Origin: Nitrospirota bacterium
GTDB lineage: Bacteria > Nitrospirota > UBA9217
NCBI GenBank assembly: GCA_963749655.1
Contig: CAVVOB010000018.1
Coordinates: 96,001-160,000, forward strand
Length of the DNA: 64,000 nt
Direction: 5' to 3'
A program made the position numbers and the translations under genes. The first letter of the stretch is position 1, and every line of letters begins with the position of its first letter. Under the pieces are notes generated by a model, which worked only from the letters and a program-made list of their open reading frames with translations, did not search any database and had not been told where the DNA came from. Below, in pieces: positions 34,804-60,048 of this stretch.

Positions 34804-37422
34804 TCATCGGCCCGTCACTTCTGCCGCGTCTGCAAGTTCGTACTTACCCTCGAGAAACGACCGGACGTAGCGCTCCACGGCCCTGTCGTCGTTCAGTACG
34901 GCGTCCAGCTGCCGGGTGTAGGAAAAGAGCCGGCCGAGCTGGTCGAGGACCTTTACGGCGTCCTCCTGCTGAATGTTCGCAAGCCGGGCAAGGATGAGGT
35001 CCCCTTTGGTTTTGATGTTGAATCCGTACTCCTCCAGGATCGCGGCGATGAGCTGCAGCCGCCGCGAGCGCTTGGTCATGTCGGTTGCGCCGCCGGCGAA
35101 GCGGAAATAGATGTGGTTGTTCCTTGCCTGTTCGCTGCAGAAGCAGTCCATGACTATGAAGTGATATCCGAACTTGAGACTGATATTGGCATATTCCCGG
35201 GAGATGACCGCCATGTTCTGCTCCACACGGCCTGCCGGGCCCGCTGTAATGTCCGGCACGCGGAGCATACTCGTCATGAAATCGTTCATCCCGAGGGGAA
35301 CTGCGTCGGAACGCCAGAGCCCCGGGAGCGTCATGCCGTTGATAACGGCACGGAGCGGAATGGAGGAGATCTGCCCGGCGGTTACCTGGTCGTGGTTTTC
35401 AGGATTGTCAACCCCTCCGCCGATGTCGATCAGCATGATGCCTGCGGGGACGGACAGGTCGAGTCTGACGGCTCCGGACCGGACGCCCCGGCGCGCCCCG
35501 TCGATCAGCGCCGCTACGGACTTTTCGTGGATGAAGCGAAGGACGTCGTGCAGAGTCCTGCAGGCCTTGGGTGTAAATTCATCCCGCAGGGGATCGACAA
35601 GGTTCAGCGGCGTGATGGAGCGAAGCAGATACCGCTTCCTGCGGAACTCGTAGACGTTTTCCATCCTGCGCGCGTTCCGGTCGGCCCGGGCGACCAGGTC
35701 GGGGACGATCCCGCCGTAGATCGCCGACCTGTTGTCGTCTCCGGCAACAACGGTGACGGGCTGCCCGTGCTTCAGGCTCTCGGTGGCCCCGGACAGACCC
35801 ACGATGGTCGGGATTCTCAGCTCCCGGCACAGCGCGGCCATGTGGCTTGTCTGCGACCCCCGCTCGGTGATGATGGCCGAAACGTAGGGCATGGTGGATG
35901 CAAAGAGGGATGAGTCGCTGGGCGCCACGAGGACGACGCCTTTGGGCAGGTTCAGGATGTCCGCCGGCTTTCTGACAATGAAGACCTTGCCTGCCCCGGT
36001 GCCGCGCTGCACCACGGTACCGCGGTCCTGCAGGAGGACGGGATGGGCGCCGGCTGGATCGAGGTTCGCGGTCCCATTGGCTGACGCAGGCGGGTCGCTT
36101 CTGTCTTGCACGGCCAGCGGCCGCGCCTGGAGTACGAAGAACTTCCCCCTGGAGTCAATGGCCCATTCGATGTCGCGCGCCGATCCAAAATACCGCTCGA
36201 TTGCCATGGCATGGCGGGCGACGGCCGCCGCCGTTTCCGGGGACAGACAGGTCCGGTCCCGGAGCTCCTCGGGAGTCCTGATCTCCTCCGTCTCCCCCTT
36301 CCCGGCCATGCGTATCATGGATTCCTTCCTGCCGGGGGTCACCCACTTGAGCACCGGTTCCTTCCTCTTGCTCACGACATAGAGGTCCGCTTCCGCCCGG
36401 CCCTCGACAACGGCCTCGCCCAGTCCCCAGACAGCATTGATGATCAGGGTGTTCGCATCGCCCTCCGGTGTCGTCGTATAGATGACGCCGCTCGATGCGG
36501 CATCGACCATGACCATGCAGGCCACTGCCATTCTCATGTCCCGGATGCCGTAGCCCAGGCGCGCCTGATAGGCCGCCGCCGGTTCCGAAAAAAGACTGGC
36601 GATCACTTTGCGGTAAGCCTTTTCGATCTCGCCGGGATCGAGGGGAACGTTCAGGACGGTCTCGAACTGTCCGGCAAAGGAGAAGTCTCCATCCTCTTCC
36701 CCGGCGCTGCTCCTGACGGCAAGGGAGCAGCCCTCGCCGCAGCGAGCACGAAGCTTCTTCACGGTCTTCTCGATGGCGCGGCTGACCGGGGCGGGCATCG
36801 TTCCGTGCAGCATCAGCTCGCGGATCTCGTGCAGTACGGACGGGAGGATCGGAGCGCCGGGCCCGGGAAGCGCGATCTTTTCGAAAATGCGGTTCTCCTG
36901 CAGAAAGGCATCGAAAGCGGCCGTGGTAACGGCAAAGGCATCGGGAACCGCGAGACCGATCGCATTGCGGACCTCTGCCAGGCTCGCGTTTTTCCCCCCG
37001 ACAACGCGCGTCATGTCGGCGGTTATCCTGTCGTAGGTCAAGATAAAGGGTTCTGAAGCCGAGGGGGTCTCGTCAATGACCGTCCGGATCCTTTCATCGA
37101 TCTCCCGAAACCGGCCCTCCAGGCCGCTGAAGCGGCGGCCGGTCAGGTCGGCGAAGAGCCGGAGCGAATTCTCCATCTCCGCCCGGAGACGGGAATAGGA
37201 GCCGTTGACATAGACAATGTCGAACAGGTAGTCACCGCCCAGTTTCTCGCCCATGTCCGTGATGGTTTCGAGCGCCCTGTTGTTGCTGTCGAGTACGCTC
37301 CGGAAGCGGTCGAAGAGGGCCCGGAACTCGGCCGGATCCGCCGACGCCTTCCCGCGGAAGAGCGTCCGGGACAGTGACGAGTAGAGTGTCTGTATGATCA
37401 TCGAATGTTTCATGGCACTCAT
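34804..37422 (-). CDS. PEP-synthase/PPDK-like dikinase (ATP-grasp plus His swivel) with a non-canonical C-terminal domain
   Basis: 'VGGKNASL', 'AVRSSAGEED..SFAGQF', 'DIEWA', 'LQARP', 'TERGSQTSHMAALCRE'; no pyruvate-binding barrel motifs. Confidence 0.85.
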   Translation of the reverse strand: MSAMKHSMIIQTLYSSLSRTLFRGKASADPAEFRALFDRFRSVLDSNNRALETITDMGEKLGGDYLFDIVYVNGSYSRLRAEMENSLRLFADLTGRRFSGLEGRFREIDERIRTVIDETPSASEPFILTYDRITADMTRVVGGKNASLAEVRNAIGLAVPDAFAVTTAAFDAFLQENRIFEKIALPGPGAPILPSVLHEIRELMLHGTMPAPVSRAIEKTVKKLRARCGEGCSLAVRSSAGEEDGDFSFAGQFETVLNVPLDPGEIEKAYRKVIASLFSEPAAAYQARLGYGIRDMRMAVACMVMVDAASSGVIYTTTPEGDANTLIINAVWGLGEAVVEGRAEADLYVVSKRKEPVLKWVTPGRKESMIRMAGKGETEEIRTPEELRDRTCLSPETAAAVARHAMAIERYFGSARDIEWAIDSRGKFFVLQARPLAVQDRSDPPASANGTANLDPAGAHPVLLQDRGTVVQRGTGAGKVFIVRKPADILNLPKGVVLVAPSDSSLFASTMPYVSAIITERGSQTSHMAALCRELRIPTIVGLSGATESLKHGQPVTVVAGDDNRSAIYGGIVPDLVARADRNARRMENVYEFRRKRYLLRSITPLNLVDPLRDEFTPKACRTLHDVLRFIHEKSVAALIDGARRGVRSGAVRLDLSVPAGIMLIDIGGGVDNPENHDQVTAGQISSIPLRAVINGMTLPGLWRSDAVPLGMNDFMTSMLRVPDITAGPAGRVEQNMAVISREYANISLKFGYHFIVMDCFCSEQARNNHIYFRFAGGATDMTKRSRRLQLIAAILEEYGFNIKTKGDLILARLANIQQEDAVKVLDQLGRLFSYTRQLDAVLNDDRAVERYVRSFLEGKYELADAAEVTGR

Positions 37423-37565
37423 AACTCAAAAGTTAGAATTCAGAAGTCAGAAACCAGAATGCACATCGCAAAACCGAGAACTCGAAGCTGATTATTTTCC
37501 TCAGCCCTCTGCCCGGGGCCCCATGCTTCTCAACTCAAAACTCGAAACTAAAAACTCAAAACTGC
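37421..37565. repeat. Heptamer repeat arrays (RR-dikinase spacer)
   Basis: AAGTTAG/AATTCAG/AAGTCAG/AAACCAG and AACTCAA/AACTCGA/AACTAAA/AACTCAA arrays. Confidence 0.7.
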
Positions 37566-37567
37566 CG

Positions 37568-37933
37568 TTATTTCGCCAGCGCCCGCTTGATTGATTCTTT
37601 CAATTCCTTGATCCTGACGGGTTTTGGGAAAAAATCATGCACGTCGCCGCGCAGCGCCTCGATGGCCGCGTCGAGGTTCGCAAAGGCGGTGATCATGATC
37701 ACCGTCGTCCCCGGGTATTCCCGTTTGACGGTCCGGAGAACCTCCATGCCGTCGATGCCTTTCATCTTGTAGTCGGTGACCACGACCTGAAATTTTTTTT
37801 CCTTCAGCCTGGCCAGGGCCGGTTCGGCGTTCAGGAAGGTCTCGACATCGTACCCTTCCTGTTCGAGCGACAGCTTCGCCATGTCGCCCACGATCTTTTC
37901 GTCGTCAATGACCATGATGCTGTATTTATCCAT
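37568..37933 (-). CDS. Single-domain response regulator (receiver)
   Basis: 'VIDDE', 'VVTDYKM..IDG', 'MITAF', 'PKP'; start overlaps the kinase stop. Confidence 0.9.
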   Translation of the reverse strand: MDKYSIMVIDDEKIVGDMAKLSLEQEGYDVETFLNAEPALARLKEKKFQVVVTDYKMKGIDGMEVLRTVKREYPGTTVIMITAFANLDAAIEALRGDVHDFFPKPVRIKELKESIKRALAK

Positions 37934-39338
37934 CATTCCTCTCCTCGTGGTGATATTTCGGCAGCTCGACGGTAAAGGTCGTGCCGACGCCCACCTTGCT
38001 CTCCACCCTGATCTCTCCTTTATGATTCTTAATGATACCATAGCTGACCGACAGCCCCAGACCCGTTCCGCCCTCGCCCTTGGTGCTGAAGAAAGGATCG
38101 AAAATGTGGGGCAAATACTCCGGTGGGATGCCCTTGCCCGTATCCTTGACCGTGACCTCGACGGTTTCGCCGCTCTTCCCCGGCCGCGACGCAATATAAA
38201 GCCTTCCGCCTGCGTTCATGGCCTGGACGGCGTTGGTGATGAGATTGACGAAGACCTGCTGGATCTGGTGTTCGTCGAGGGAGAGATGGGGCAGACCCTC
38301 TTCGAGATTCACCGTCGTCTCGATGTTCTGCACGTCGATCATGTTCTGGACCAGCGTGAGGGTCTTCTGGATGACGGCGTTGATATCCGCCTCCCTCGGA
38401 TTCGCGTCCTTGGGTTTGGAAAAATCCAGGAGGTTCTTGACGATCTTGCGGATCCTTTCCGTTTCAGCGTCGACCTTCAGCATGAACCCGCGCCGGTCCG
38501 TTTCGTCCAGGTTCCCGTACAGCTCGTCGTAGGTCTGCGCGATCATGGAGATGTTGTTCAGGGGATTTGTGATCTCATGCGCAACGCCCGCCGTAAGAAT
38601 GCCGAGGGAGGCCAGCTTCTTGGACTGGATGATCTCCTCTTCGCGGTGGGCAAGCTCCTCGGACATGGAATTGACGGCCGTGATGACCGAACCGAGCTCG
38701 TCGTTCGACCGGAACCCTTCGATGTGGTGGAAATTTCCTTCCGAAATGGACCGCGTCATCCGCTCGATCTCCCGCAGGGACCGCACGATCTTCTGCGAGA
38801 TGAAATGGCTGATCAGGAGCGCGGAAGCCAGGATCGCCCAGAAGGAAAAAATAAGGATGCGCTTCGAACTCAGGATGATGTCGTTCACGCGCCGCCGTTC
38901 GAGCTGGGTGATCGAGTCAGAATATTCTTTCAGCTTCCTGCCGTCAAGGCGGATCCTTGCCTCGAGATCCAGGCCCGGAGCATTTCCCCTCCCCGTTGCC
39001 CTGACGGCGTCCGCATAGGACCGGAGCAGGGCTTCCAGCTTCCGGAGGTCCGTTTCTCCGATCGCCGGGATGATGTCCCCTTTCGCCGATTCAAGGGTAG
39101 CCTGGGCTGAGGCGATTTTCCCCTGGATCTCCGCGAGCGCCTTTCTGTCGTGGTAGAGAAAATAGTTCTTTTCCGACAGGCGCATCTCGAGGAACGACGC
39201 GTTCAGATCGTCGGCGATCTCCACGAACCGCAGCTTCGTCAGGACCAGGTTCATGTTCTGAAAGGCGAAAAAGCCGATCAGGATGATGAAGGCCCCGTTG
39301 ATGACATTCGAGAGGATAAGCTTGTTTTCGATCTTCAT
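37926..39338 (-). CDS. Sensor histidine kinase (2 TM, helical sensor, HAMP, HisKA, HATPase)
   Basis: 'LEMRLSEKNYFL', 'AHEITNPL', 'NLITNAVQA', 'DTGKGI', 'GTGLGL'. Confidence 0.93.
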   Translation of the reverse strand: MKIENKLILSNVINGAFIILIGFFAFQNMNLVLTKLRFVEIADDLNASFLEMRLSEKNYFLYHDRKALAEIQGKIASAQATLESAKGDIIPAIGETDLRKLEALLRSYADAVRATGRGNAPGLDLEARIRLDGRKLKEYSDSITQLERRRVNDIILSSKRILIFSFWAILASALLISHFISQKIVRSLREIERMTRSISEGNFHHIEGFRSNDELGSVITAVNSMSEELAHREEEIIQSKKLASLGILTAGVAHEITNPLNNISMIAQTYDELYGNLDETDRRGFMLKVDAETERIRKIVKNLLDFSKPKDANPREADINAVIQKTLTLVQNMIDVQNIETTVNLEEGLPHLSLDEHQIQQVFVNLITNAVQAMNAGGRLYIASRPGKSGETVEVTVKDTGKGIPPEYLPHIFDPFFSTKGEGGTGLGLSVSYGIIKNHKGEIRVESKVGVGTTFTVELPKYHHEERNDG

Positions 39339-39354
39339 GAACAATTTAGCATAG

Positions 39355-39465
39355 TGCACGGCGCATGGTAACTTCCGCAAAGAGCATAGGGCATGGCGCA
39401 TGAAGAGAGGTATCCCTCTGCCCTCTGCCCTAACTCAAAACTAAAAACTAAGAACCAGAAACTGC
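39355..39465. repeat. Heptamer repeat arrays
   Basis: GCATAGG/GCATGGC-type and AACTCAA/AACTAAA/AACTAAG units. Confidence 0.6.
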
Positions 39466-39467
39466 TT

Positions 39468-40703
39468 TTATTCCGGGTACGCGATCCCCCGCGGGATCTC
39501 GGCCTGCTCCTTGCGCACGGGCCAGTACCAGAACATGCCGTCCGCCAGCATCAGGACCCCGGCCGCCATGAGCCATAAGTTGAAGGACGTGAGCAGTCCA
39601 AACCCGAAATAGCTGATGATGCCGATGCCGATGCTCAGGAAAGAAATGCCGGTCCGGATGAATGCGAGTCCGGTCCGTGCCCGGGAGTAAATCGTGCGGT
39701 AACAGGCTGCGATCGTACGCTGGGCCGCCAGAACGTTTCGCTCCCGCGCGAACATGGTCCGCGTCTTGCTGGACGGCGTCGGATTCAAATACGTGCTGTA
39801 GTCCGCCAGCAGGTCTCCCATCCGGGCAAGCATGGTTCCCTGGATCCGCCGTTCAAGCGCCGTATCTTCCGGCGAATGGTAATTCTCGAGAAACTGGATC
39901 GTGGCCGCGGTCACCTCCGCAAGAGTCTGGTTGCCCGGCGGCGTCATCCGGGATTTTCGCACATTGAGATAACCGGGAAGACCGTACAGGGCGATGATGA
40001 TGCCGATCGCAAGAACTGAAAAATAGAGATAGGGATTCGTGCTCGTGTTCTTTGACTGCAGCAAAGCATTCGAAAGGGCGATCGTACCCAGGCCCCACCG
40101 AAGAAAAGCGAGCCCGGTCCTGGCCTTCGCCAGATCGGTCCGGTAGCAGGCCATTCTCGTGCGCCATTGGGCCATGGTGTTTCTCCAGAATGCAAGGCCC
40201 GTCCGCTCGGTCCCGATCAGAAGACCCGGCCGTGCATGGAGATAGTCCTGGATGTACCCTTGAATGTCCGAATCGAGGGCGACACGAAACTCATAGCGTT
40301 CCGCCTTGATGAACTTTCTTACGTCCTCCCGCATCGCCGGGCTCTCGGGATTGCGCGCCGCGATCGTAACCAGACCCGACCGGTCCCTCATGACGGGCAT
40401 CCACTGGTACGACGAAAGGGAGTCCTGGCTGACGGCGGAGAGCAGTTCCGGAGGGATCGGCAGCCGTTCGTCGTACTCGATGGAGGCGCAGTGATAGTAC
40501 TCGGCAAGCGCCTCGAGCAGGTCCTGCTTGAACACGCCGAACTCCCGAATCAGCACCTTCTCGAGTTCTACTCCACGGGCCTGTGCCATTCCCCCCGCGT
40601 CTTCCAGTTCCGCCCGGCTCAGAATACCCCGGTCAACCAGAAGCGAGAACTCCGACTGCGGTCGGACGGGAGTGTTGACCACGTTTTCGATATCATTCTT
40701 CAT
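39468..40703 (-). CDS. GspE/PilB N-terminal-like domain plus 2 DUF202-like membrane units
   Basis: N-terminal 'LLVDRGIL...LLEALAEYY..IEYD..WMPV..VTIAARNP'; two 'RT(G)LAF.R.G' plus TM-hairpin units. Confidence 0.75.
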   Translation of the reverse strand: MKNDIENVVNTPVRPQSEFSLLVDRGILSRAELEDAGGMAQARGVELEKVLIREFGVFKQDLLEALAEYYHCASIEYDERLPIPPELLSAVSQDSLSSYQWMPVMRDRSGLVTIAARNPESPAMREDVRKFIKAERYEFRVALDSDIQGYIQDYLHARPGLLIGTERTGLAFWRNTMAQWRTRMACYRTDLAKARTGLAFLRWGLGTIALSNALLQSKNTSTNPYLYFSVLAIGIIIALYGLPGYLNVRKSRMTPPGNQTLAEVTAATIQFLENYHSPEDTALERRIQGTMLARMGDLLADYSTYLNPTPSSKTRTMFARERNVLAAQRTIAACYRTIYSRARTGLAFIRTGISFLSIGIGIISYFGFGLLTSFNLWLMAAGVLMLADGMFWYWPVRKEQAEIPRGIAYPE

Positions 40704-42336
40704 TGTGATTAAAAATAATCGTCCCCCAGGACAGGGCAGGCCTGCCGTAGTCCGGGACGGTTATCTCCATGTCTCCGTAGCAATAGGGGTACTCTTTTCT
40801 CATACGCTCGACCGGCACCATCCAGCGGTATCCGTCGACGATGAGAACAAGCCCGCCGACGATCAGCAGACCGTTGAAAATGGTCCAGCCCACGGAGGCC
40901 ACGCCGAAATAAACCAGGAGGCCCGCTCCCACCGACGTAATGCTCATGCCCGTCCTGATGTAGGCCAGTCCCGTCCGAGCAACGGCCATGATCGTGCGAA
41001 GCCTGGCCATGACGCCCCGGCGGTCGGCCAGCACGGTCCGCTCCAGTGCAACACCCGTCGTGCCCCAGATGCCGGGCATCTGGCTTGCAGTGACCGGCGG
41101 TCCGGCCTTGTCTTTCTTTGAACCCAAGCGTTTGTGGCCGGGAGGGAATACAAGATCCCAGATGGTCTCCTTGTTGAGCACGTCAAGAACGGACCGGTAG
41201 CCTTCAAGGCCTGCCTTGCGGCCCCCAAAGTACCAGTGGAACCCCTCCGCGGACATGAGAATGCCGGCGATGATCAGGGAAACGTCGAAGAACGTCCACC
41301 CGCTCGCTGAAAACTGTCTCAGGAGCCCGATGCCGAGGCCGGTGAAGGCAATGCCGGTCCTGGTAAAGGCCAGTCCCGTCCTGGCCCGGGCGAGCTTTGT
41401 CCGGTGGCCGGCAAGGGACGTCCGTTCCTCCGCCATATCGGTCCGGTCGCTGGCCAGAAATCTCCTTCTCATGACCGGGGAAAGGTTCTCCCATCCCGCC
41501 CTGAGTTCCGTTGCGCCCTCCATCTCTCCCGTGCGGCTGAAGGACGGATGTCCATTGATCAGATCATCGCGGAGAACGCAGCTGCCCCAGGTGGGATTCG
41601 TCCGCGCGCCGTCGATCGGTTTGCCGGCTATTCTTCTCGCAGGCAGGTACCACTTGATCCCGTCATAGACCATGATGATCCCCGCTACGAGGAGCGGCGC
41701 TTCCAGGGCCGCGTACCATCCCGCGCCGAGCACGCGCAGGAACAGGAGGGCGATCACGATGAACGAGACGCCGGTCCGGATAAAGGCGAGCCCGGTCCTG
41801 CCCTTCGCGAACAGGGTGCGGTAATGGGCATAGGTCGAGCGGCGGTAGGCAAAGAGCGTCCGCACGCGCGCAAGCGGCGTCCGTCCGCCGGAAATGCAGA
41901 AGTTGGGGTTTACGTCGAAATTGTGCTCTATGATGCGGATGAGGTCCGAGGGAAGAGCTACGCGGAAATCGATCTGTTCAACGCCGAGTGTCCGCTTGAT
42001 GTCTTCAGCCACACGAGGGTCATCAGGACGACAGGCGACGACTTCGGCCCGCCTCTCCCTGACCGAAAGAGGGAACCACAGGGCTTTCTTTTGATGTTCC
42101 AGGTCGAGCCTCAGAACGATAAAATAGGACGCGACGACGCCTTCGTCGAATTCAACGAAGGGAAGGCCGTAGTAGGCCGCCAGGCTTAAGAGGATCTCGT
42201 GCTTTGGTATGCCCTTGTTCACGAGGAGCTCTTCGATCGCTGCGCCGGACCCCTTCGCATCCTGCTCCAGCTTTGTCAGGTCCTCAAGCGGGAGCAATCC
42301 CCGCTTAACCAGCCTATGATATCTCATCACTTTCAT
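40693..42336 (-). CDS. GspE/PilB N-terminal-like domain plus 3 DUF202-like membrane units
   Basis: N-terminal 'LVKRGLL...LAAYYGLPFVEF..WFPL..VVACRP'; three 'RTGLA(F/Y).RTG' plus TM-hairpin units; overlaps the next gene by 11 nt. Confidence 0.75.
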   Translation of the reverse strand: MKVMRYHRLVKRGLLPLEDLTKLEQDAKGSGAAIEELLVNKGIPKHEILLSLAAYYGLPFVEFDEGVVASYFIVLRLDLEHQKKALWFPLSVRERRAEVVACRPDDPRVAEDIKRTLGVEQIDFRVALPSDLIRIIEHNFDVNPNFCISGGRTPLARVRTLFAYRRSTYAHYRTLFAKGRTGLAFIRTGVSFIVIALLFLRVLGAGWYAALEAPLLVAGIIMVYDGIKWYLPARRIAGKPIDGARTNPTWGSCVLRDDLINGHPSFSRTGEMEGATELRAGWENLSPVMRRRFLASDRTDMAEERTSLAGHRTKLARARTGLAFTRTGIAFTGLGIGLLRQFSASGWTFFDVSLIIAGILMSAEGFHWYFGGRKAGLEGYRSVLDVLNKETIWDLVFPPGHKRLGSKKDKAGPPVTASQMPGIWGTTGVALERTVLADRRGVMARLRTIMAVARTGLAYIRTGMSITSVGAGLLVYFGVASVGWTIFNGLLIVGGLVLIVDGYRWMVPVERMRKEYPYCYGDMEITVPDYGRPALSWGTIIFNHNEE

Positions 42337-42404: not shown

Positions 42405-42490
42405 TCGGAAAGAATGGGAAGAGGCGCAAAGGCCTCTTCCCCATGCACATAACGGGGGATGTCTGCTGCCCGTACTCGGCAGCCGTGCAA
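42405..42490 (-). promoter_or_regulatory. Structured leader / terminator-like hairpins upstream of the DUF202 genes
   Basis: Stems ATGGG(G)AAGAGGC/GCCTCTTCCCAT followed by TCTTT; GCTGCC/GGCAGC; TGCAC/GTGCA. Confidence 0.45.
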
Positions 42491-42853: not shown

Positions 42854-43276
42854 CTACACTCCCACAACAAACACGGGGCACGTTGCCCGGTCGATGACCT
42901 TCTCCACCACATGGTCCCCGAAGAGGCGGCTCAGAATGCCCTTTTTCTTCTTGGAGCCCATGATGATGAGGTCGCACCGCTCTTCCCGGGCGACTTCCAC
43001 GATCCGGTCCGGGACATCGCCGGTCTCCAGGCGTGTTTTTACCATGGCGTTCTCGGCGGCAGCAATCTCGCTGATGTCCGCAACGGCCTTGGCTGCACCG
43101 TCGTCCAGGACGTCGTGCAGGTTCTTGATGCCCGTAAGATTGAGCTCGCCGTCAAAGGGCCGGAGCACCTTGACGACGGTGATCCATGTTCTTTCGTCTT
43201 TTGCGAGCTTGATGCCCTGCTTCAGGACCTCCCGGGAGCCGTTCAAAGCGATCAATACTTTTCTATAGCCTTTCAT
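42854..43276 (-). CDS. Universal stress protein (single domain)
   Basis: 'YRKVLIALNGS', 'DLIIMGS', 'FGDHVVEKVI..ATCPVFVV'. Confidence 0.9.
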   Translation of the reverse strand: MKGYRKVLIALNGSREVLKQGIKLAKDERTWITVVKVLRPFDGELNLTGIKNLHDVLDDGAAKAVADISEIAAAENAMVKTRLETGDVPDRIVEVAREERCDLIIMGSKKKKGILSRLFGDHVVEKVIDRATCPVFVVGV

Positions 43277-43474: not shown

Positions 43475-44338
43475 TCACTTCACGATCAATATCGGACAGG
43501 AGGCATGAGCAATGACCCGCTCCGCCGTACTGCCCATGAGCGCCTTGTTGACCCCGCGCCAGCCGTGCGTTCCGACGACGATCAGGTCGTGATCCTTTGT
43601 CTCGGCCGCTTCGACGATCTTGTCTCCCGAGTGGCCTTCCATGACCGAGGTCGTTACCTCGACGCCCAGCCCCGAGGCGATGCCCCGGGCGACGGCGACG
43701 ATCTTATCCGCTTCCTGCATCAGGCTTTTCCTGACAGCGTCGGTCTTGAAAAAGTCCATCATCTCTTCGTAGCGAGGGATCACATAGAGGACCGATACTT
43801 TTGCTCCGTCCACCTTTGACAGGGCACAGGCCCGGGTCAGCGCTTTCCTGCTCGATTCCGAGCCGTCGAAGGGCACGAGCAGGGAGCGGTAGTTGCCGCT
43901 GCATTTCGAGCAGGGCCGCTTCACTACGAGCACGTCGCAGGGCGCGCTGAGGATGACCTGCGAGGTCACGCTGCCCATGAGCAGCCGCTTCAGGCCCTTC
44001 CTGCCGTAGGTGCCGAGGGCGATCAGGTCCGCATGATTCGTCTCCGCTGTTTCCACGAGCACCTGGGGAGGCTCTCCCTGGCAGACGAACGAATCGACAT
44101 TGCCGTTCAAACCGAATTCATCATGGATCCCGGTTTTTGCCCGCCGGCAGATCTGCGTGCCGATCTCGAAGCGTTGTTCCATCTGAGAGGGCAGGATTGC
44201 GAACTCCTCCTGGTCGAAATAGACCGCATGGACCAGGAAAAGCTTCCCTCCGTGTTGTTTTATCCAGAGCGACGATTCTTTGACCGCCGCTTTGCTCGAT
44301 TCCGACTCGTCGAATCCGACCACGATGGTGTTATACAT
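43475..44338 (-). CDS. Universal stress protein (tandem domains, CxxC linker)
   Basis: Two USP domains 'G.YGRKG..LMGSV' and 'GTHGWRG..LMGSTA'; linker 'PCSKCSG'. Confidence 0.93.
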   Translation of the reverse strand: MYNTIVVGFDESESSKAAVKESSLWIKQHGGKLFLVHAVYFDQEEFAILPSQMEQRFEIGTQICRRAKTGIHDEFGLNGNVDSFVCQGEPPQVLVETAETNHADLIALGTYGRKGLKRLLMGSVTSQVILSAPCDVLVVKRPCSKCSGNYRSLLVPFDGSESSRKALTRACALSKVDGAKVSVLYVIPRYEEMMDFFKTDAVRKSLMQEADKIVAVARGIASGLGVEVTTSVMEGHSGDKIVEAAETKDHDLIVVGTHGWRGVNKALMGSTAERVIAHASCPILIVK

Positions 44339-48209: not shown

Positions 48210-48242
48210 ACAGTGTTTCCCCAAAAAATCGAGTATCAGATA

Positions 48243-49995: not shown

Positions 49996-50040
49996 AAAAT
50001 AAAAACGGCTGAAAGCGCAGCAGCGGCGCCTTCAGCCGTT
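49996..50040 (-). terminator. Intrinsic terminator after USP
   Basis: AACGGCTGAAGGCGC...GCGCTTTCAGCCGTT followed by TTTATTTT. Confidence 0.75.
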
Positions 50041-50057
50041 CGTCGGACAATGAATAC

Positions 50058-50913: not shown

Positions 50914-51982
50914 GCTCCAGGGCTCCGGAGGCCTGCTGCAGTCTCTCGGCCTGGCGTCCCTGCCACATGGCACGAAGAACGATGAAAGCACCGAGCAGCA
51001 ATGCGAAGATCATTATAGCAAAGCTGCCGTTTTTCAGCAACGTGACCGTCGTGTCGCCCATTTTGTCGATGAGGCCGAGCTGGGCAAGATACACGGGGAC
51101 CATGAGGCCGCGGCTGAAGAGCACGATCACCATGATCACGCCCATTACGACCTTGATCATGAAGGGCTTTACATAGGTCGTCCCGATGGCGCCGAGCTGG
51201 ATGCCGAACAGCGATCCTCCGAGGATGATCATGGCCAGCCGGATGTCGACCATTCCGTGCATCGCGTACTTGAACGATCCGCCGAGGCCCATCACGAAGG
51301 CAATCACCAGCTCCGTGGCGGAAGCCATGAGGCTCGGCGCGCCGAGCACGTAGATCATGGCGGGAACGCCGACGAAACCGCCCACTGCAATCGTGGCCGC
51401 CATCATGCCCGTTGCAAAACCAAGGGGGATGGTGAAGAGGATGGAAACGCGGGCATTGATGCTTTTGAAATAGACCATGGTTCCGGGGATATTGATGGAC
51501 TGGACCCATTTCGCCAGCTTGCCGGTCTTTTCCTCTGCCTGGGAATTTCCGGACCGGTAGGTTTTCCAGGCATCATAGAGGACGAAGCCGCCGACTGTGG
51601 CGAGAATCACCACGAAGGCCACGCTGACGTAGAGGTTCGAACCCGCATCGCCGAAAGCAGCTTTGATCCGCTCCTGGATCGTAGCGCCGTAGAGGACGCC
51701 CGCTTCGGCCGAGACGCCGAGGATCACGCCCAGCTTGACGTCGACCTGACCGTACTTGAAACGCTTCATCGCGCCTACGAGCGCCTTGGGGAACTTGTGG
51801 CACATATTGCTTGCCACGGCCATGAGACCGGGGACGCCCAGGCTCATCATGCCCGGCGTAAGAACGAATGCGCCGCCTGAGCCGATGAATCCGCTGACGA
51901 GACCGCCGACAAAACCAACTCCAAAAAGGTACAGCACCGTGATGGCATCGAGATTGATGAAACCCGTCGCAATATCGTGCAT
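50900..51982 (-). CDS. TSUP (TauE/SafE) family transporter
   Basis: 'GFIGSGGAFVLTPG', 'AVGGFVGVPAMIY'; multi-TM. Confidence 0.9.
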   Translation of the reverse strand: MHDIATGFINLDAITVLYLFGVGFVGGLVSGFIGSGGAFVLTPGMMSLGVPGLMAVASNMCHKFPKALVGAMKRFKYGQVDVKLGVILGVSAEAGVLYGATIQERIKAAFGDAGSNLYVSVAFVVILATVGGFVLYDAWKTYRSGNSQAEEKTGKLAKWVQSINIPGTMVYFKSINARVSILFTIPLGFATGMMAATIAVGGFVGVPAMIYVLGAPSLMASATELVIAFVMGLGGSFKYAMHGMVDIRLAMIILGGSLFGIQLGAIGTTYVKPFMIKVVMGVIMVIVLFSRGLMVPVYLAQLGLIDKMGDTTVTLLKNGSFAIMIFALLLGAFIVLRAMWQGRQAERLQQASGALEHGKV

Positions 51983-51983
51983 G

Positions 51984-52235
51984 TTATTTTACCTCCGTTT
52001 TCTTTTTCGAAGCCTCGACGCCGAGCACGGTCCAGAAATGACCGGTGAATGATCCATGAAAAAATGAAAAAACAAATGCCGTTATGATCGGCAGGAATGC
52101 AAACCATCCTCCCTTTGCAAAACTGCCGTTCACCATGTCCTGGTTGGACATGAGGTACACGTACAGGCCGACTGAGATGATTCCCATTGCCACCATTTTC
52201 CCTACGGGCTTCTTCTTGGTGATGCTTTGTGCCAT
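51984..52235 (-). CDS. Small 2-TM membrane protein (TSUP-associated)
   Basis: 83 aa, 'PI.TAFVFSFFHGSFTG.FW.VLG'; SD AAGGAGG; coupled to the TSUP gene. Confidence 0.75.
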   Translation of the reverse strand: MAQSITKKKPVGKMVAMGIISVGLYVYLMSNQDMVNGSFAKGGWFAFLPIITAFVFSFFHGSFTGHFWTVLGVEASKKKTEVK

Positions 52236-52409: not shown

Positions 52410-53015
52410 TTACGCTGCACAGCAGGCCTGCCGGGTCATGGTAACGATCGGCCGGGAAGCGGTGCGGACGAGCGAATTCAGCTCCTTGGCGGAAACATAG
52501 CCGTCGCTCGTCACCGCCGGGCTGAGCACGACCTTGTCGATGCCCGTATGGGTCTTGAGGAACGTCTTGATCCCCGCAACGGCGTCGAGCTTCGAGTCCT
52601 CGACCTTTACGTCGATCCCTTCTTTTCTGCACAGGGTCGTAAGATCTGCCAGCTTTTCTTCGAAGCTCTTGCGGAGATCAGTGGAACTCTGCCCCACAAT
52701 ACCGCGCGCGGTGTCGAACTCCCCTTCCTCGGCATAGGCCGCGGCGGTCAGGATGTTCTCGACCGCGTTGACCTCGAAGTTCTCGCGCACTGCGCCCTGC
52801 ATCATGATCTCCCGCGCCGTGTCCTGCTCTCCCTCTTCGGCAAAAGACGCTGCGGCCATCATATTGCCGAGCCTGTTGATGACACTGCCCTTCTTCTGGA
52901 CCAGCAAAAGCGTGATGTCTTCGTACATGGCTTTTGCCAGCTCGATGGCATAGGCGCCGCCCTCTTCGATGTTCTCGTCCCGGTAGGTGACGAATAGAAG
53001 TTGTCTTTTTCCCAT
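52410..53015 (-). CDS. Degenerate USP-like protein with a duplicated (F/Y)AEEGExDTAR motif
   Basis: Paralog of 46147-46623 with an internal duplication; SD AAGGAGG. Confidence 0.75.
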   Translation of the reverse strand: MGKRQLLFVTYRDENIEEGGAYAIELAKAMYEDITLLLVQKKGSVINRLGNMMAAASFAEEGEQDTAREIMMQGAVRENFEVNAVENILTAAAYAEEGEFDTARGIVGQSSTDLRKSFEEKLADLTTLCRKEGIDVKVEDSKLDAVAGIKTFLKTHTGIDKVVLSPAVTSDGYVSAKELNSLVRTASRPIVTMTRQACCAA

Positions 53016-53629: not shown

Positions 53630-54979
53630 CTAGCTCTCCCCTGCATCGCCGTCCTCTTTCAATATTCTCCAGAGGCTGGTGCGGGATATGCCGAGCACTT
53701 CGGAAGCGCGGGTCCGGTTCCCGCCGTACATTTCGAGGACCTTTTCCGCGTACTCCCTGTTCAATTCGTCGATGGTCTTGATCTTGTCGGGCTCGATGGT
53801 CTCGATCTGGAACATCTTGATCGTCTGGGGCAGGCTGTCGGCCGAGATGACCGGCCCCTTTTCAAGAATGATGGCCCGCTCGATGATGTTCTCCAGCTCA
53901 CGGACGTTGCCGGGGAAGCTGTAGTGTTTGAACACGGCCATCGCTTCCTTCGTGAATCCGGTTATCTTCTTGCGCGACTTCGGCAGGTGCTTTTCGAGAA
54001 AATAGGCGGAAAGCGGCTGGATGTCCTCGCGCCGGTCGCGCAGGGGGGCGATGAAGATCTCCATGATGTTCAGGCGGTAGTAGAGGTCTTCGCGGAACCT
54101 GCCCTCGGCAATGACCGCGCGCACGTTTTGGTTGGTCGCAGCGATGAACCGCACGTCGACCTTGATGGGCCGGGTGCCGCCGACGCGGTAGAACTCGCCT
54201 TCCTCAATCACCTTGAGCAGTTTGGCCTGGAGGTTCGGCGTCATTTCCGCGATCTCGTCGAGGAACAGCGTGCCCGTGTCGGCGATCTCCACGAGGCCCT
54301 GCTTGGTCTTGACCGCGCCGGTGAAGGCCCCCTTTTCATGCCCGAAGAGCTCGCTGGCGAGGAGCTCCTCGGTGAGGGTGGCGCAGTTGATGGACAGGAA
54401 CGGCATGGTCTGGCGCCTGCCGGTGTAATGGATGATCTTGGCCAGGAGGCTCTTGCCCACACCGGTCTCGCCCGTGAGGAGCACGTTGCAGTCGGAGTCC
54501 TTCATCCCCTCGATGATGCCGAGGATGTTGAGCATGCTTTCGCTCTTCGCGATGATGGAGACCTTCTTGTCCGAGCTTGCAAAGGCCCTGAGCGCGACGT
54601 TCTCGCGTTTGAGGCTGGCCTGTTCGCTGATTTTTTTCACCTTGTGCAGGAGTTCGTCGAGGTCGAAGGGCTTGGTCACGTAGTCGTTGGCGCCCTTTTT
54701 CATGGCGTCGACGACGGAGCTGATGCTGCCGAACCCGGTGACGATGATCACCTCGGTCTCGATCTGCTTCTCACGGACCATCTCGAGGAGCTCGATCCCC
54801 GTATGGCCCGGCATCTTGATGTCTGCTATCAGCAGGTCGAAATGATCCGACTCGAGCTTGTGCATCGCATCCAGCCCGTTCGGCACGCCGGTGACGAGAT
54901 AGGATTCCTTGCTCAGAGCGTTGACCAGGTGCTTCAAGGTGATCTCTTCGTCTTCTGCTACCAGTATTTTAAATGCCAT
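53630..54979 (-). CDS. sigma54-dependent NtrC-family response regulator
   Basis: 'GETGVGKS', 'GAFTGA', HTH 'GISRTSLW'; close paralog of 46878-48209. Confidence 0.96.
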   Translation of the reverse strand: MAFKILVAEDEEITLKHLVNALSKESYLVTGVPNGLDAMHKLESDHFDLLIADIKMPGHTGIELLEMVREKQIETEVIIVTGFGSISSVVDAMKKGANDYVTKPFDLDELLHKVKKISEQASLKRENVALRAFASSDKKVSIIAKSESMLNILGIIEGMKDSDCNVLLTGETGVGKSLLAKIIHYTGRRQTMPFLSINCATLTEELLASELFGHEKGAFTGAVKTKQGLVEIADTGTLFLDEIAEMTPNLQAKLLKVIEEGEFYRVGGTRPIKVDVRFIAATNQNVRAVIAEGRFREDLYYRLNIMEIFIAPLRDRREDIQPLSAYFLEKHLPKSRKKITGFTKEAMAVFKHYSFPGNVRELENIIERAIILEKGPVISADSLPQTIKMFQIETIEPDKIKTIDELNREYAEKVLEMYGGNRTRASEVLGISRTSLWRILKEDGDAGES

Positions 54980-55129: not shown

Positions 55130-56704
55130 TCAATGTTGCTTCAGGGGAAGGGCGATCGTGAAAGTCGTACCCCGCCCCTCCTCGCTCTCGGCGACGATTT
55201 CGCCGTTGTGTTTCTTGACGATATTATACACGATCGCGAGTCCCAGGCCGGTTCCCTTGTCCCTGGTCGTAAAAAAAGGTTCGAAGACCTTGTCCAGGTT
55301 GTCCCGCGGGATGCCCTTTCCCGTATCGGCGACGACGACAACGGCCGATTCCTCGGTCTTCCTGATCGTGACTGCAATGCTGCCGGTTCCTTCGACTGCG
55401 TCCGCAGCGTTTGCGAACAGATTGGTGAATACCTGCTCGAGCTGCCCCCGGTCCGCGGGCACAGAGATCTGCGGGGGTATGGAATCGAGGGTGAAGCTGA
55501 TAGTGACCATGTCGCGGGCGCCGGCCAGATGGCGGTAAGAACCCGTGATCAGGTCCGCCAGCTCCACGTCCTGGTACCGGGGCTCCCTGCCGCGGGCGAA
55601 CTCAAGAAGGTCTCCCACAATCCGCTTGACGCGGGCCGTCTGGCCCACGATGTCGGTGACCGCCTCCTTGATCGCCGGCGGGCACTGGTCCCCCGCCTCC
55701 CGCGACAGCACCTGGGCGCTCAGGTAAATGTTGTTCAGGGGGTTGTTCAGCTCATGCGCCACGCCCGAGGCCAGGGTGCCGATGGCGGCGAGCTTCTTTG
55801 CCTGCATCAGCTCCTTGTTCTTGCGCTCGAGCTCGGACTCGTGCGCCGCAAGCTGGTCCTCCATCTCGTTGAACTTTCCGATCAGCACCCCCACCTCGTC
55901 GAGGGCCCCGCTCCGGGGGGGCGGCACTGAAAGCTGCGGATAGGAACCGCTGCCCGTTTTTTCGACGACCCTGATCAGCAGAATGAGCCGTTTAACCACG
56001 CTGGTGCTGATGAAAAAAAGCGTCCCGATGCCCACGGCGAAGAAGAGGGGAAAGAAGATCAGGATGGCGACCTGGGAGACGCGGATCACGGTCTCCACCT
56101 TCTCCCGAGCGACCTTGTCCAGGTCCTTGGAAACGACGACGATGGATTCGCCCGTTTTCCTGAGCGCCGTGATCTCGGAGGACAGTTCCTTGAGCCTTTT
56201 GATCAGGGGGTGCTGCGGAGGCAGGTGAAAGGCCTCCCTGAGTGACGCAGCAGACCGCAGGGGCTGTTCCAGGAACGTCGCCTCCACGAGGGGCAGGTAC
56301 CGGGCGGAACCGCCGAGCGACCTTCTGGTCATTTCGAATTCGTGGATCAGCCGCCTCGACGATGACTCAATTGAGAGAAACAGGCGCTCGTATTCCGAAA
56401 TGCTGTCCCGGAAACTCTGGGTGTCCTGCCGCTCCATGTCCGGGCTGTCGAGGAGCTCCCGGAGCTGATCGATATACTGATGGACTGCGGACGACTCTTC
56501 CTCCGCCTGTTGAGGGCTGTACAGGAAATAGTTCTTCTCGTGCCTGCGGAGCTGGAGTGACTTGCGGCTGATCGTGTCCGTGACCTCGAGATACCGTATC
56601 TGCTGCTTGATCTCGATGAAGTTGATGTACTCGAAGGCCGCGAGAATCGCGATAATAAAGGCGCTGATGAAGAAGCTGAGGGCTATTTTTTTCTTGAGTG
56701 ACAT
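55130..56704 (-). CDS. Sensor histidine kinase
   Basis: 'LQLRRHEKNYFLY', 'AHELNNPL', 'DTGKGI', 'GTGLGL'. Confidence 0.94.
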   Translation of the reverse strand: MSLKKKIALSFFISAFIIAILAAFEYINFIEIKQQIRYLEVTDTISRKSLQLRRHEKNYFLYSPQQAEEESSAVHQYIDQLRELLDSPDMERQDTQSFRDSISEYERLFLSIESSSRRLIHEFEMTRRSLGGSARYLPLVEATFLEQPLRSAASLREAFHLPPQHPLIKRLKELSSEITALRKTGESIVVVSKDLDKVAREKVETVIRVSQVAILIFFPLFFAVGIGTLFFISTSVVKRLILLIRVVEKTGSGSYPQLSVPPPRSGALDEVGVLIGKFNEMEDQLAAHESELERKNKELMQAKKLAAIGTLASGVAHELNNPLNNIYLSAQVLSREAGDQCPPAIKEAVTDIVGQTARVKRIVGDLLEFARGREPRYQDVELADLITGSYRHLAGARDMVTISFTLDSIPPQISVPADRGQLEQVFTNLFANAADAVEGTGSIAVTIRKTEESAVVVVADTGKGIPRDNLDKVFEPFFTTRDKGTGLGLAIVYNIVKKHNGEIVAESEEGRGTTFTIALPLKQH

Positions 56705-56796
56705 GGTCTCCTGGCAAGGACTGTATCATATTCCCCGTGCCCCTGGCAATCTGAAAAAACGGCCGGGCCGGCGCACGCCCGCAGTCAATCTAATTG

Positions 56797-56825
56797 TTGA
56801 ACAAAACAACCGGGTGTTGTACAAT
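56797..56825 (+). promoter_or_regulatory. sigma70 promoter of the divergent HK-RR pair
   Basis: TTGAAC-17-TACAAT. Confidence 0.6.
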
Positions 56826-56915
56826 GCAACACGAACAGAAAAGGACGGACCAGAGGGCTCCGCCCGCGAGGTCGTTTCCTCAATTCCGAGAGGATCCCCG
56901 GAACAAACCGCACCG

Positions 56916-58591
<1,676 letters not shown>

Positions 58592-58686
58592 GAAATGCTT
58601 TTCTTCGTTTATTTTGACTGATATCCCGTTCGTGCAGAGCCGCAGCATGAACGGATACAAAGTATGATTTCATAAGGAGCAGGGAA

Positions 58687-60048
58687 ATGCAGGCCACAGC
58701 TAAAATACTCATTGTCGACGACGAGCGGGTCGCGCTCAGAAACCTCGAATACGTCACGAAAAAAGCGGGCTACGACGTGACCGGAACGCAGAGCGGATCG
58801 AACGCGCTGAGACTGCTGCAGGAAAACAGCTACGACGTCGTTCTCACGGATCTGCGCATGGAAAAAGTCGACGGCATGCAGATCCTGAAGAAGACCCGCG
58901 AGCTCCACCCGGACGCCGAGGTCATCATGATTACCGGATACGCGACGCTCGACTCCGCCGTCGAAACCATGAAGCACGGGGCGTTCTACTACATCGCCAA
59001 GCCCTATAAGCTGGAGGAAGTGCGCAAGGTGGTCAAGGAAGCTGCCGACAAGGTCCGTCTCAAGGTCGAGAACCGGCAGCTGCGCGACCAGCTGGAAAGC
59101 TACCAGGGAAAGATCAATATCCTGACCGAGGACATCGGCATGCAGAAGCTCCTCGAGACCGCGCGCCAGATAGCGCTCACGGACTGCAATGTGCTCATCT
59201 CGGCCGAGCGCGGCACCGGCAAGGAGCTCCTTGCGCGGTACATTCACCTGAACAGCACCCGCGCCGAGGGCGCGTTCTCCACGCTCAGCTGCGGTGCTTT
59301 GACGGAGGAGCTGCTTTCCTACGAGCTCTTTGGACACGAAAAGGGAGCGTTCAAGGGCGCGGCTTCCGTGAAAAAAGGGGTCGTAGAGGCGACGTCGGGA
59401 GGCACGCTGTTCCTTGACGAGATCACCGAGCTGCCGCCGTCGATCCAGGTGAAGCTCCTTCATGTGATCCAGGAAAAGGAAAGCATTCGTTACGGGGGCA
59501 CGGAACCGATCCCCGTCGACGTGCGGTTTGTGGCCGCTACGGACCGGGACATCAACGCCTCGATCCAGAACGGCTCGTTCCGCCAGGACCTCTACTTCCG
59601 GCTGAACGTTGTCTCGCTCCGCATCCCGCCGCTCGTGGACCGCAAGGACGACATCCCCCTGCTGTCGTTCCATTTCCTGAAGAAATATGCCGCCCTTATG
59701 AAAAAAGGAGTGACCGAGATTTCTCCGGACGTGCTCAGCCTGCTCCTCAACTATGACTTCCCGGGAAACGTGCGGGAGCTCGAAAACGTCATCGAACGCG
59801 GCGTTGCACTTGCGAACGACAGGATGATCGAGGCGGCCCACCTGCCGGAGCATCTTCGGGAGCTCAGCATCAAGACGTTCAGGAAAAAGGAGGGCAAAAT
59901 CCCCTCTCTGGACGACCAGGAAATGGTCTACATCAAGTGGGTGCTGAACGAAGTCGGAGGCAACAAAACCCTTGCCTCGCAGATCCTCGGCATCGACCGC
60001 GTCTCGCTCTGGAGAAAACTGAAAAAGTACGGCCTGGAGAGCGACTGA
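58687..60048 (+). CDS. NtrC-family response regulator with degenerate sigma54-interaction loop
   Basis: Receiver, AAA+ and HTH, but 'SAERGTGKE' and 'GAFKGA'. Confidence 0.92.
   Translation: MQATAKILIVDDERVALRNLEYVTKKAGYDVTGTQSGSNALRLLQENSYDVVLTDLRMEKVDGMQILKKTRELHPDAEVIMITGYATLDSAVETMKHGAFYYIAKPYKLEEVRKVVKEAADKVRLKVENRQLRDQLESYQGKINILTEDIGMQKLLETARQIALTDCNVLISAERGTGKELLARYIHLNSTRAEGAFSTLSCGALTEELLSYELFGHEKGAFKGAASVKKGVVEATSGGTLFLDEITELPPSIQVKLLHVIQEKESIRYGGTEPIPVDVRFVAATDRDINASIQNGSFRQDLYFRLNVVSLRIPPLVDRKDDIPLLSFHFLKKYAALMKKGVTEISPDVLSLLLNYDFPGNVRELENVIERGVALANDRMIEAAHLPEHLRELSIKTFRKKEGKIPSLDDQEMVYIKWVLNEVGGNKTLASQILGIDRVSLWRKLKKYGLESD

Follow-up and report, generated by a model that had tools for sequence, protein, structure and literature searches.

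Gene content of the locus

We analyzed a 64,000-nucleotide (nt) stretch of a Nitrospirota bacterium genome (assembly GCA_963749655.1, 86.6% complete, hereafter G000), referred to throughout as the window (G000:C18:96001-160000), in which two operons for TauE/SafE family (TSUP) permeases lie beside the genes of two DUF202 membrane proteins, DUFA and DUFB, and of a dikinase-like enzyme, DIK. Named homologs of the window proteins belonged without exception to Nitrospirota, Thermodesulfovibrionales, Dissulfurispiraceae or Candidatus Sulfobium. Read in the direction of transcription, module 1 on the minus strand comprises the histidine kinase HK1, the activator NtrC1, a sigma-54 motif, an unnamed gene, an 83-amino-acid (aa) membrane protein, TSUP1, a tandem universal stress protein (USP) and a strong hairpin. 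Module 2, on the same strand, comprises HK2, NtrC2, a sigma-54-like motif, a paralog of the unnamed gene, TSUP2, Alph_Pro_TM, a tandem USP, a single USP and TatA. Behind TatA follow a weaker hairpin, DUFA, DUFB, a third kinase (HK3), a stand-alone receiver and DIK, and a fourth HK/NtrC pair lies divergently on the plus strand. Every gene listed in a preliminary description of this DNA was recovered at its coordinates and on its strand by open reading frame (ORF), Pfam and NCBIfam analyses (Table 1).

Table 1. Features of the cluster, with positions counted from the first letter of the window (TM, transmembrane; AF2, AlphaFold2).
Feature	Position	Strand	Basis
DIK, dikinase-like, 872 aa	34804..37422	-	Pfam, NCBIfam, PDB search
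Stand-alone receiver (CheY-like), ~120 aa, start approximate	37568..37930	-	Response_reg E 3.6e-26
HK3: two TM segments, periplasmic helical sensor, HAMP, HisKA, HATPase_c	37926..39401	-	Pfam, TM scan
DUFB: MshEN-like domain, 2 DUF202 hairpin units, arginine heptads	39468..40703	-	Pfam, alignments, complex prediction
DUFA: MshEN-like domain, 3 DUF202 hairpin units, arginine heptads; 11-nt overlap with DUFB	40693..42336	-	Pfam, AF2 model
Terminator-like hairpin between TatA and DUFA, 10-bp stem (7 GC), weak T-run	42416..42441	-	Hairpin scan
TatA/E-family protein, 63 aa	42576..42767	-	TIGR01411 E 1.2e-20
Single-domain universal stress protein	42854..43276	-	Usp PF00582 E 1.8e-20
Tandem universal stress protein, module 2	43475..44338	-	Usp PF00582 E 1.8e-61, two stretches
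Alph_Pro_TM (TIGR02186), two frames, 44580-45137 and 44338-44691	44338..45137	-	PF09608 positions 2-147 and 149-227, one per ORF
TSUP2, TauE/SafE family permease	45137..46066	-	TauE E 4.6e-51
Unnamed-family cytoplasmic protein 2	46147..46623	-	Conserved; without Pfam match
Sigma-54 -24/-12-like motif AGGCATCATTCGTGCT, begins 51 nt upstream of start codon	46659..46674	-	Motif search
NtrC2, sigma-54 activator	46878..48224	-	Sigma54_activat E 5.6e-66, Response_reg, HTH_8
HK2, sensor histidine kinase	48379..49944	-	Pfam
Terminator-like hairpin after module 1, 16-bp stem then T-run	50003..50041	-	Hairpin scan
Tandem universal stress protein, module 1, start approximate	50058..50930	-	Usp PF00582 E 1.8e-59
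TSUP1, TauE/SafE family permease	50900..51982	-	TauE E 5.8e-33
83-aa membrane protein, two TM segments, ahead of TSUP1	51984..52235	-	ORF, TM scan
Unnamed-family cytoplasmic protein 1	52410..53015	-	Conserved; without Pfam match
Sigma-54 promoter motif TGGCACGTGTGGTGCA, begins 76 nt upstream of start codon	53076..53091	-	Motif search
NtrC1, sigma-54 activator	53630..54979	-	Pfam
HK1, sensor histidine kinase	55130..56704	-	Pfam
HK4, divergent sensor histidine kinase, start uncertain	56562..58397	+	HAMP, HisKA, HATPase_c
NtrC-type activator 4, divergent	58687..60048	+	Pfam

Gene order and co-occurrence in related genomes

The window proteins were mapped by tblastn onto 40 kb around the DUFA homolog in nine relatives. 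Eight of them showed the order unnamed gene, TSUP2, Alph_Pro_TM, USP, USP, (TatA), DUFA, DUFB, HK3, receiver and DIK, and the ninth (G014) was cut by a contig end after DUFB. The stand-alone receiver was the most conserved cluster protein (75-94% identical in relatives), TSUP2 was 73-93% identical, and G036, a single-contig relative from another family, kept the order at ~50-60% identity for most proteins. The cluster from TSUP2 to DIK in a genome of the same genus (L029/L030; G009:C26:241000-281000) was full of frame breaks and stops, including 3 TGA and 1 TAA codons inside DUFA, and this breakage may reflect either decay of the locus or poor assembly.

A DUFA profile built from 18 of at least 120 homologs yielded 154 relatives in a species-representative collection, and 78 loci were kept. 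DUFB followed DUFA in 76 of the 78, both misses being contig ends. Downstream, in the 55 loci with at least 5 kb of sequence, HK3 was present in 47, the receiver in 48 and DIK in 46. Upstream, the 60 loci with at least 4 kb contained TSUP2 (39), Alph_Pro_TM (39), the tandem USP (36), the single USP (35), the unnamed gene (36) and TatA (17). Among the 45 loci that could be assessed on both sides, 28 had TSUP2 together with DIK, 9 DIK only, 2 TSUP2 only and 6 neither.

We then profiled 401 genomes of the phylum, placing cut-offs at gaps between E-values: 1e-85 or better against 1e-27 or worse for DUFA, where the weaker matches covered the MshEN part only, and 1e-135 or better against 1e-91 or worse for the C-terminal domain of DIK. 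Of these genomes, 60 carried DUFA and 61 the DIK ortholog: 54 had both, 6 DUFA alone, 7 DIK alone and 334 neither. Five of the six genomes with DUFA alone are fragmented or have the match at a contig end. Alph_Pro_TM occurred in 103 of the 401; among these were 56 of the 60 genomes with DUFA and 57 of the 61 with DIK, and DUFA, DIK and Alph_Pro_TM coincided in 51. Apart from a few bins labelled otherwise, some of them Desulfocapsaceae, all carriers of the pair fall in one phylum.

Rearranged loci, which tell more than these counts, separated the parts in differing combinations. In G167, a 99% complete genome without DUFA, locus L109 (G167:C2:36000-55999) carries HK, NtrC, the unnamed gene, TSUP2, Alph_Pro_TM, USP and USP, followed by another TSUP with 67% identity to TSUP2 and by HK3, receiver and DIK. 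This second TSUP lies exactly between USP and HK3, so that a small-anion permease fills the slot of the DUF202 pair. In G053, G062 and G106, HK3 and DIK stand behind a TSUP-Alph_Pro_TM module, and in G053 and G062, the two for which this region was fetched, DUFA, DUFB and the receiver occupy a separate locus; G307 has TSUP2, Alph_Pro_TM, receiver, DIK and a DIK paralog. The dikinase can thus be tied to the TSUP module without the pair, and the pair to the receiver without the dikinase, though all usually occur together. The preliminary description had named a lack of co-occurrence across genomes as the outcome that would count against a common system; instead, the DUF202 pair, the dikinase ortholog and the TSUP partner share genomes, are syntenic in most loci and stay linked after rearrangement.

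A DUF202 pair with arginine ladders

Sequence and TM scans assigned three DUF202 units to DUFA and two to DUFB, with PF02656 above its cut-off in three stretches of DUFA and one of DUFB. In a single-unit alignment of 65 units (the five units of 13 genomes), 63 matched Pfam DUF202 individually (E<=0.01), and all 65 contained five invariant arginines at 7-residue spacing, an arginine ladder. An AlphaFold2 model of DUFA (49-row alignment; pLDDT 80.1) showed an N-terminal MshEN fold followed by three hairpins, in each of which a long helix (~50-55 residues) is paired with a shorter one (29-40 residues); the hydropathy scan likewise gave two helices per unit.

Complex prediction with the membrane parts of DUFA and DUFB returned ipSAE values of 0.70, 0.71 and 0.71 in three runs, against 0.00 for the best of three controls. 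The mark applied to these values is reached by 116 of 157 solved pairs and 2 of 215 mismatched pairs and is a rough guide here, where our own alignments were used. The runs had at least 72% of contacts in common, with a partner pLDDT of at least 59. The predicted interface is periodic along the long helices. In it, DUFA units 1 and 3 contact DUFB units 2 and 1, respectively, whereas DUFA unit 2 touches neither DUFB unit. This contact pattern is that of a predicted closed five-membered ring, A1-A2-A3-B1-B2.

VTC is a solved 3:1:1 pentamer in which TM1 helices line the pore with lysine or arginine (K/R) residues 7 residues apart, and mutating these residues abolishes vacuolar polyphosphate (PMC9911596). 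DUF202 is a family common to VTC membrane domains, which occur in an SPX-VTC-DUF202 architecture (PMC12388464). With three plus two units, a predicted ring and arginine ladders longer than the K/R stripe of VTC, the pair could be a bacterial VTC counterpart in lineages without either of the two known polyphosphate kinases (PPK): the dikinase would make a polyanion, either polyphosphate or another phosphorylated polymer, which would be threaded across the cytoplasmic membrane through the ring under the control of HK3 and the receiver. Among 41 related genomes, many of which are 95-100% complete, PPK1 was indeed found in only 2 and PPK2 in only 3, and neither was found in G000 at its 86.6% completeness. 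Like the dikinases, PPK1 works through a phosphohistidine. However, relatives that lack the pair are just as poor in PPK genes. Pair and PPK genes thus show no complementarity, and we draw no inference from the distribution of the latter. Moreover, the dikinase family is present in 143 of the 401 genomes as against 60 for the pair, the pair occurs without the dikinase in 6 genomes and in 9 of 55 loci, and a small-anion permease stands in its place in G167.

Comparison with VTC itself also argues against a direct counterpart. The DUF202 units have two helices rather than three, and a Pfam scan of 21 window proteins detected neither a TTM nor an SPX domain. Whole-protein and single-unit profiles retrieved no VTC chain by sequence. 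None appeared for the DUFA model among the 50 matches listed by Foldseek or by VIA-align; those listed were MshEN domains or else helical repeats of a generic kind and designed toroids, with 7rdr (Z 10.3) the best among the latter. Likeness to VTC is therefore limited to the family, the number of modules and the basic stripe; to that extent the term VTC-like in the preliminary description stands, and it does not extend to hairpin architecture, to matches with solved VTC chains in these searches or to polymerase and SPX domains. On balance, we regard a VTC counterpart as very improbable. In the literature searched, the papers naming DUF202 included none on this bacterial pair.

Both proteins begin with an MshEN-like domain (Pfam MshEN, E 1.6e-12 and 3.6e-10). 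The DUFA domain aligned over 138 residues with MshE bound to cyclic di-GMP (c-di-GMP; 5htl_B, Z 14.2, rmsd 3.2) and matched the c-di-GMP-bound GSPIIB domain of PilF in Foldseek (E 7e-5). These fold matches, together with GGDEF genes in the window (20932-21681 and 24476-25321) and beside the pair in L063, raise the idea of a c-di-GMP-gated channel with the MshEN domains as nucleotide sensor. The c-di-GMP motif is a tandem 24-residue RLGxx(L/V/I)2xxG(L/V/I)2xxxxLxxxLxxQ, for which a relaxed form is also given (PMC5013675). The relaxed form was found in 0 of 18 DUFA and 0 of 31 DUFB homologs, with the RLG triplet missing in both halves, and gating by this nucleotide appears extremely improbable.

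A dikinase-like enzyme from a large family

DIK consists of an N-terminal region of ~123 aa of no known family, a PPDK_N ATP-grasp domain (residues 140-443; E 1.1e-74), a phosphohistidine swivel domain (492-558; E 1.3e-18) and a C-terminal domain of ~300 aa, which is the best-conserved part of the protein. Its match to phosphoenolpyruvate (PEP) synthase is confined to residues 124-580 (PDB 2ols, E 1e-58 over residues 126-574), and against the NCBIfam PEP synthase model it scored 309.6 bits (cut-off 598) over model positions 4-475 of 798. The TSH motif of the swivel domain was conserved in at least 90% of 46 sequences. The PEP/pyruvate-binding TIM barrel PF02896 was absent from DIK at E<=0.001 and from its C-terminal piece at E<=10. 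The C-terminal domain itself gave nothing meaningful in Pfam at E<=10, no match in the PDB, no usable one in the Atlas and none in Foldseek at E<=0.001. Folded alone (37 rows), it reached a pLDDT of 72.6, and its best VIA-align match (1s12, Z 7.5, rmsd 3.8, 80 residues aligned) was to a common ferredoxin/ACT-like arrangement.

DIK had been presented as an orphan, a label that does not survive a search of 1.84 billion proteins: a profile of the C-terminal domain retrieved at least 1377 cluster representatives when the limit was E<=0.001, of which 690 also passed E<=1e-30. In members of this family, the domain nearly always stands behind a dikinase part of ~550 residues, and in 3 of 13 members scanned (P0279, P0273, P0297) a receiver is fused behind it. 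Within the phylum it was present in 143 of 401 genomes, often as several paralogs. G000 itself has one (L117, G000:C15:146000-165999, 6448-10457), with PPDK_N split over two ORFs and a PP2C phosphatase gene directly after it.

For the surroundings of the paralogs, 5 and then 40 loci were drawn from more than 150 matches, selected for contig room and family spread and not at random, with many sharing ancestry; for the 40, every ORF of 100 aa or more within 5 kb was scanned, 369 in total. Of the 21 short-type paralogs (~840-960 aa), 17 lay within 5 kb of a TauE, DASS or CitMHS transporter gene and 11 had a stand-alone receiver, covering 8 of 9 taxonomic families. Their recurrent order is dCache-PAS HK, receiver, DIK, GntR/UTRA, CBS, DASS, an LCIB-type beta-carbonic anhydrase and CitMHS, often with TauE and USP as well, a neighborhood seen in L118, L133, L134, L138, L144, L148, L150, L152, L154 and L160. 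Among the long-type paralogs (~1060-1180 aa, n = 19), ChrA was nearby in 5, four of which also had ChrB, and ChrB without ChrA in 2 more; a low-molecular-weight protein tyrosine phosphatase (LMW-PTP), PP2C/SpoIIE or dual-specificity phosphatase gene lay within 5 kb in 9 of the 19. Seven long-type loci (L120, L121, L132, L136, L140, L153, L155) lie beside ChrA, with ChrB except in L121 and L153, and with LMW-PTP or PP2C, DUF2148, MFS and HD genes. As a rough control, only four G000 genes matched a ten-protein transporter panel, with ~1.3% of genome positions falling within the same distance of one of them. DIK of the window is thus one member of a family set among oxyanion or organic-anion transport and two-component signaling. 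That such dikinase genes adjoin TSUP and USP genes in Nitrospirota of the sulfate-reducer type bears out a statement of the preliminary description.

This setting bears on a further reading of DIK as a small-molecule "X, water dikinase", which would phosphorylate the transported molecule to trap it or turn a toxic oxyanion into an exportable ester, while the TSUP permease and the ring moved substrate and product. Rifampicin phosphotransferase and PigC are dikinase relatives with other acceptor domains and small-molecule substrates. The NCBIfam matches of DIK include rifampicin phosphotransferase and the prodigiosin ligase PigC, paralogs lie beside DASS, CitMHS, TauE and ChrA transporters and GntR/UTRA regulators, and a TSUP replaces the pair in G167. 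In contrast, the partner receiver has no DNA-binding domain and is sometimes fused to the enzyme, as is typical of signaling outputs; the phosphatase genes near 9 of 19 long-type paralogs suggest a protein target, and window domain scans detected no catabolic genes for a phosphorylated product nearby. We consider a small-molecule dikinase rather unlikely.

The neighbor of the cluster on the DIK side is a gene for a multihaem cytochrome c (32783-33646), and a ketoacyl synthase gene stands between it and the GH57 and DUF4912 genes described below.

Transporter operons and their regulation

PF01925 covered the whole permease in both TSUP proteins (174.2 bits for TSUP2 and 115 bits for TSUP1; cut-off 32.6). 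The 83-aa protein ahead of TSUP1 is syntenic in G036, G015, G062 and L101, and homologs of the divergent activator NtrC4 adjoin the module of the 83-aa protein, TSUP1 and USP in G036 and G062. A TSUP partner had been announced for the modules; Alph_Pro_TM is indeed present, although in module 2 only and here split over two frames. The frame break at 44580-44691 corresponds to a 2-nt insertion relative to the L031 ortholog, and of three orthologous regions checked, the two clean read-outs gave a single ORF of 265-268 aa. The break could be that of a real pseudogene or an assembly error. The literature searched contained no paper naming TIGR02186, PF09608 or Alph_Pro_TM, and a search for TSUP, USP and sigma-54 in sulfate reducers returned only unrelated papers.

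Three window genes match PF00582 (Table 1). The first gene of each module, described earlier as USP-like, is not among them: its family has no Pfam match at E<=10 and no relative in the PDB (best E 0.014), and hhalign gave a probability of 0.25% against the neighboring USP family. These first genes make up a conserved cytoplasmic family without a name. The TatA gene is one of five paralogs in G000. Four further TatA/E-like genes, among them C18:11912-12034, C19:115041-115199 and C38:64274-64813, are present in this genome, and the cluster TatA is therefore not the sole copy.

Both transporter operons combine an NtrC-type activator with an upstream -24/-12 element, as in sigma-54-dependent operons. 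A plain search for the sigma-54 consensus was not enriched in the window (20 matches versus 27.9 expected). In its intergenic regions, a -24/-12 fit occurred at two sites only, both before the unnamed genes, and in 31 of 36 related loci the homologous gene had such a motif 36-76 nt ahead of it, compared with 4.8% of random 260-nt windows. The sites TGGCACGTGTGGTGCA and AGGCATCATTCGTGCT thus count because of their position and conservation and not because of the number of consensus matches. Sigma-54 control, which had been proposed for the whole locus, is accordingly limited to the two transporter operons: no motif was found upstream of DUFA/DUFB, HK3, the receiver or the dikinase in the intergenic regions of the window, and 70 related DUFA upstream regions contained no conserved sigma-54 motif, six of them having one loose GG-N-TGC match each at inconsistent positions. 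The intergenic gaps from DUFA to DIK (-11, 66-130, ~0 and 145 nt) are compatible with a single transcript. A sigma-70 promoter scan was uninformative, with 7 sites versus 6.5 expected.

The sensor domains of HK1 and HK2 are 49% identical, and the start of the HK3 sensor is 31% identical to both (E ~5e-10). Given this likeness, the three kinases may respond to related ligands.

A proposed neighborhood for anion homeostasis

We propose one functionally linked neighborhood for anion homeostasis, whose three parts have been shuffled yet kept together by evolution, and put the chances of this reading at about even. Two paralogous HK/NtrC pairs would switch on the TSUP permease operons via their sigma-54 promoters, with the unnamed cytoplasmic protein, Alph_Pro_TM or the 83-aa membrane protein, and the universal stress proteins as accessories of the permeases. 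DUFA and DUFB would form a heterodimer in which 3+2 hairpins close a five-membered ring, the long N-terminal helices bearing the invariant arginine ladders, so as to provide a positively charged conduit for a presumed anionic cargo. The role proposed for the cytoplasmic MshEN-like domains is docking or gating rather than c-di-GMP sensing. Together with HK3, the stand-alone receiver would act as a post-translational two-component switch with the dikinase as enzymatic output, and the receiver probably acts on the channel too. DIK would move phosphate from ATP to the swivel histidine and from there to a putative target bound by its own C-terminal domain. The pathway of sensing, transport and phosphorylation for an anion that had been suggested earlier is partly supported.

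The same parts could instead be mere neighbors inherited in one lineage, with transporter operons, DUF202 pair and kinase-receiver-dikinase unit functionally unrelated. Several observations lean in that direction and weigh against our proposal. TatA and DUFA are separated by 239 nt and a terminator-like hairpin; together with the missing sigma-54 motif, this means that the parts may be regulated separately, and separate promoters are likely. The pair stands with neither TSUP nor DIK nearby in 6 of the 45 loci assessable on both sides, among unrelated housekeeping genes (such neighbors emerged when Pfam was run on 44 of the 99 ORFs at 6 of 8 exception loci). Alph_Pro_TM occurs without the pair in 47 genomes, and no part strictly needs the others. 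Carriers fall almost entirely in one phylum, and since the genomes are close kin, the counts overstate the independent support; the same caution applies to the selected, partly related paralog loci. On the structural side, the ring rests on a model, and its passing score may partly reflect likeness to the VTC pentamer, a like complex that was already solved, although no VTC chain was retrieved by sequence or fold; the generic alpha+beta fold of the DIK C-terminal domain says nothing about the acceptor.

Against mere neighborhood, the links outlast rearrangement in differing combinations. The order is kept while identity among carriers drops to ~45-60%, all three parts coincide in 51 of 401 genomes as compared with 60, 61 and 103 singly, and paralogous dikinases lie independently beside TauE and USP genes. 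Mere inheritance as neighbors therefore seems quite improbable to us.

Surroundings of the cluster

Elsewhere in the window, a MASE3 sensor fragment occupies positions 2-844, and a complete nuo (complex I) operon (3972-19031) lies between this fragment and the cluster side, where the two GGDEF genes cited above encode diguanylate cyclases. A GH57 glycoside hydrolase gene stands beside a DUF4912 gene (28571-31000). After the divergent NtrC gene, positions 61221-63935 encode a protein of 904 aa that contains six Big_2 domains as well as NHL/LVIVD repeats. An Rfam scan of the window gave a single match, a tRNA at 1147-1220.

Significance and comparison with known systems

All parts of the cluster belong to recognizable families, but no key one among these includes a member that has been studied. 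With its 3+2 arginine ladders, the DUF202 pair would give the VTC pore its first bacterial relative whose architecture can be tested. For two-component signaling, the dikinase family (at least 1377 cluster representatives) would add a new enzymatic output, one linked to TSUP, DASS and chromate-type oxyanion transporters in Nitrospirota that reduce sulfate or disproportionate sulfur. The identity of the cargo could explain how environmentally abundant, uncultured Nitrospirota of the sulfur cycle sense and handle oxyanions. The locus offers handles in the predicted heterodimer interface, the catalytic histidine, the receiver fusions and the conserved sigma-54 promoters.

Each part has a known counterpart from which it departs. 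As in NtrC-family two-component systems such as AtoSC and ZraSR, HisKA/HATPase kinases are combined with receiver-AAA+-Fis activators and -24/-12 promoters, whereas the sensors here are helical periplasmic domains of no assigned family with a common R..EKNYFLY stretch. With TauE/SafE permeases that have a TIGR02186/Alph_Pro_TM partner, the cluster shares family membership and the adjacent TSUP-Alph_Pro_TM pair; it differs in its sigma-54/NtrC control and in the USPs, DUF202 pair and dikinase downstream. DIK has the ATP-grasp and swivel phosphohistidine domains and the TSH motif of the PEP synthase PpsA (pyruvate, water dikinase; 2ols, 8a8e), whereas a conserved 300-aa domain replaces the TIM barrel, an extra 123-aa region stands at the N-terminus and the scores lie far under the NCBIfam cut-offs.

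The MshEN-like domains resemble the MshEN/T2SSE_N domains of MshE, PilF, PilB and NfrB in fold and in their N-terminal position within a larger protein; in contrast to these, they have lost the c-di-GMP motif, and their fusion partner is a membrane domain where the known proteins have an ATPase or glycosyltransferase. The eukaryotic VTC membrane domain (three Vtc1, Vtc3 or Vtc2, and Vtc4) is likewise built from five modules of the DUF202 family, with basic residues 7 apart on the pore helix. In the bacterial pair, the modules are distributed over two chains (3+2), each is a two-helix hairpin rather than a three-helix domain, with a helix of ~50 residues carrying five or six Arg-Thr heptads, and MshEN-like domains take the place of the SPX and TTM polymerase domains.

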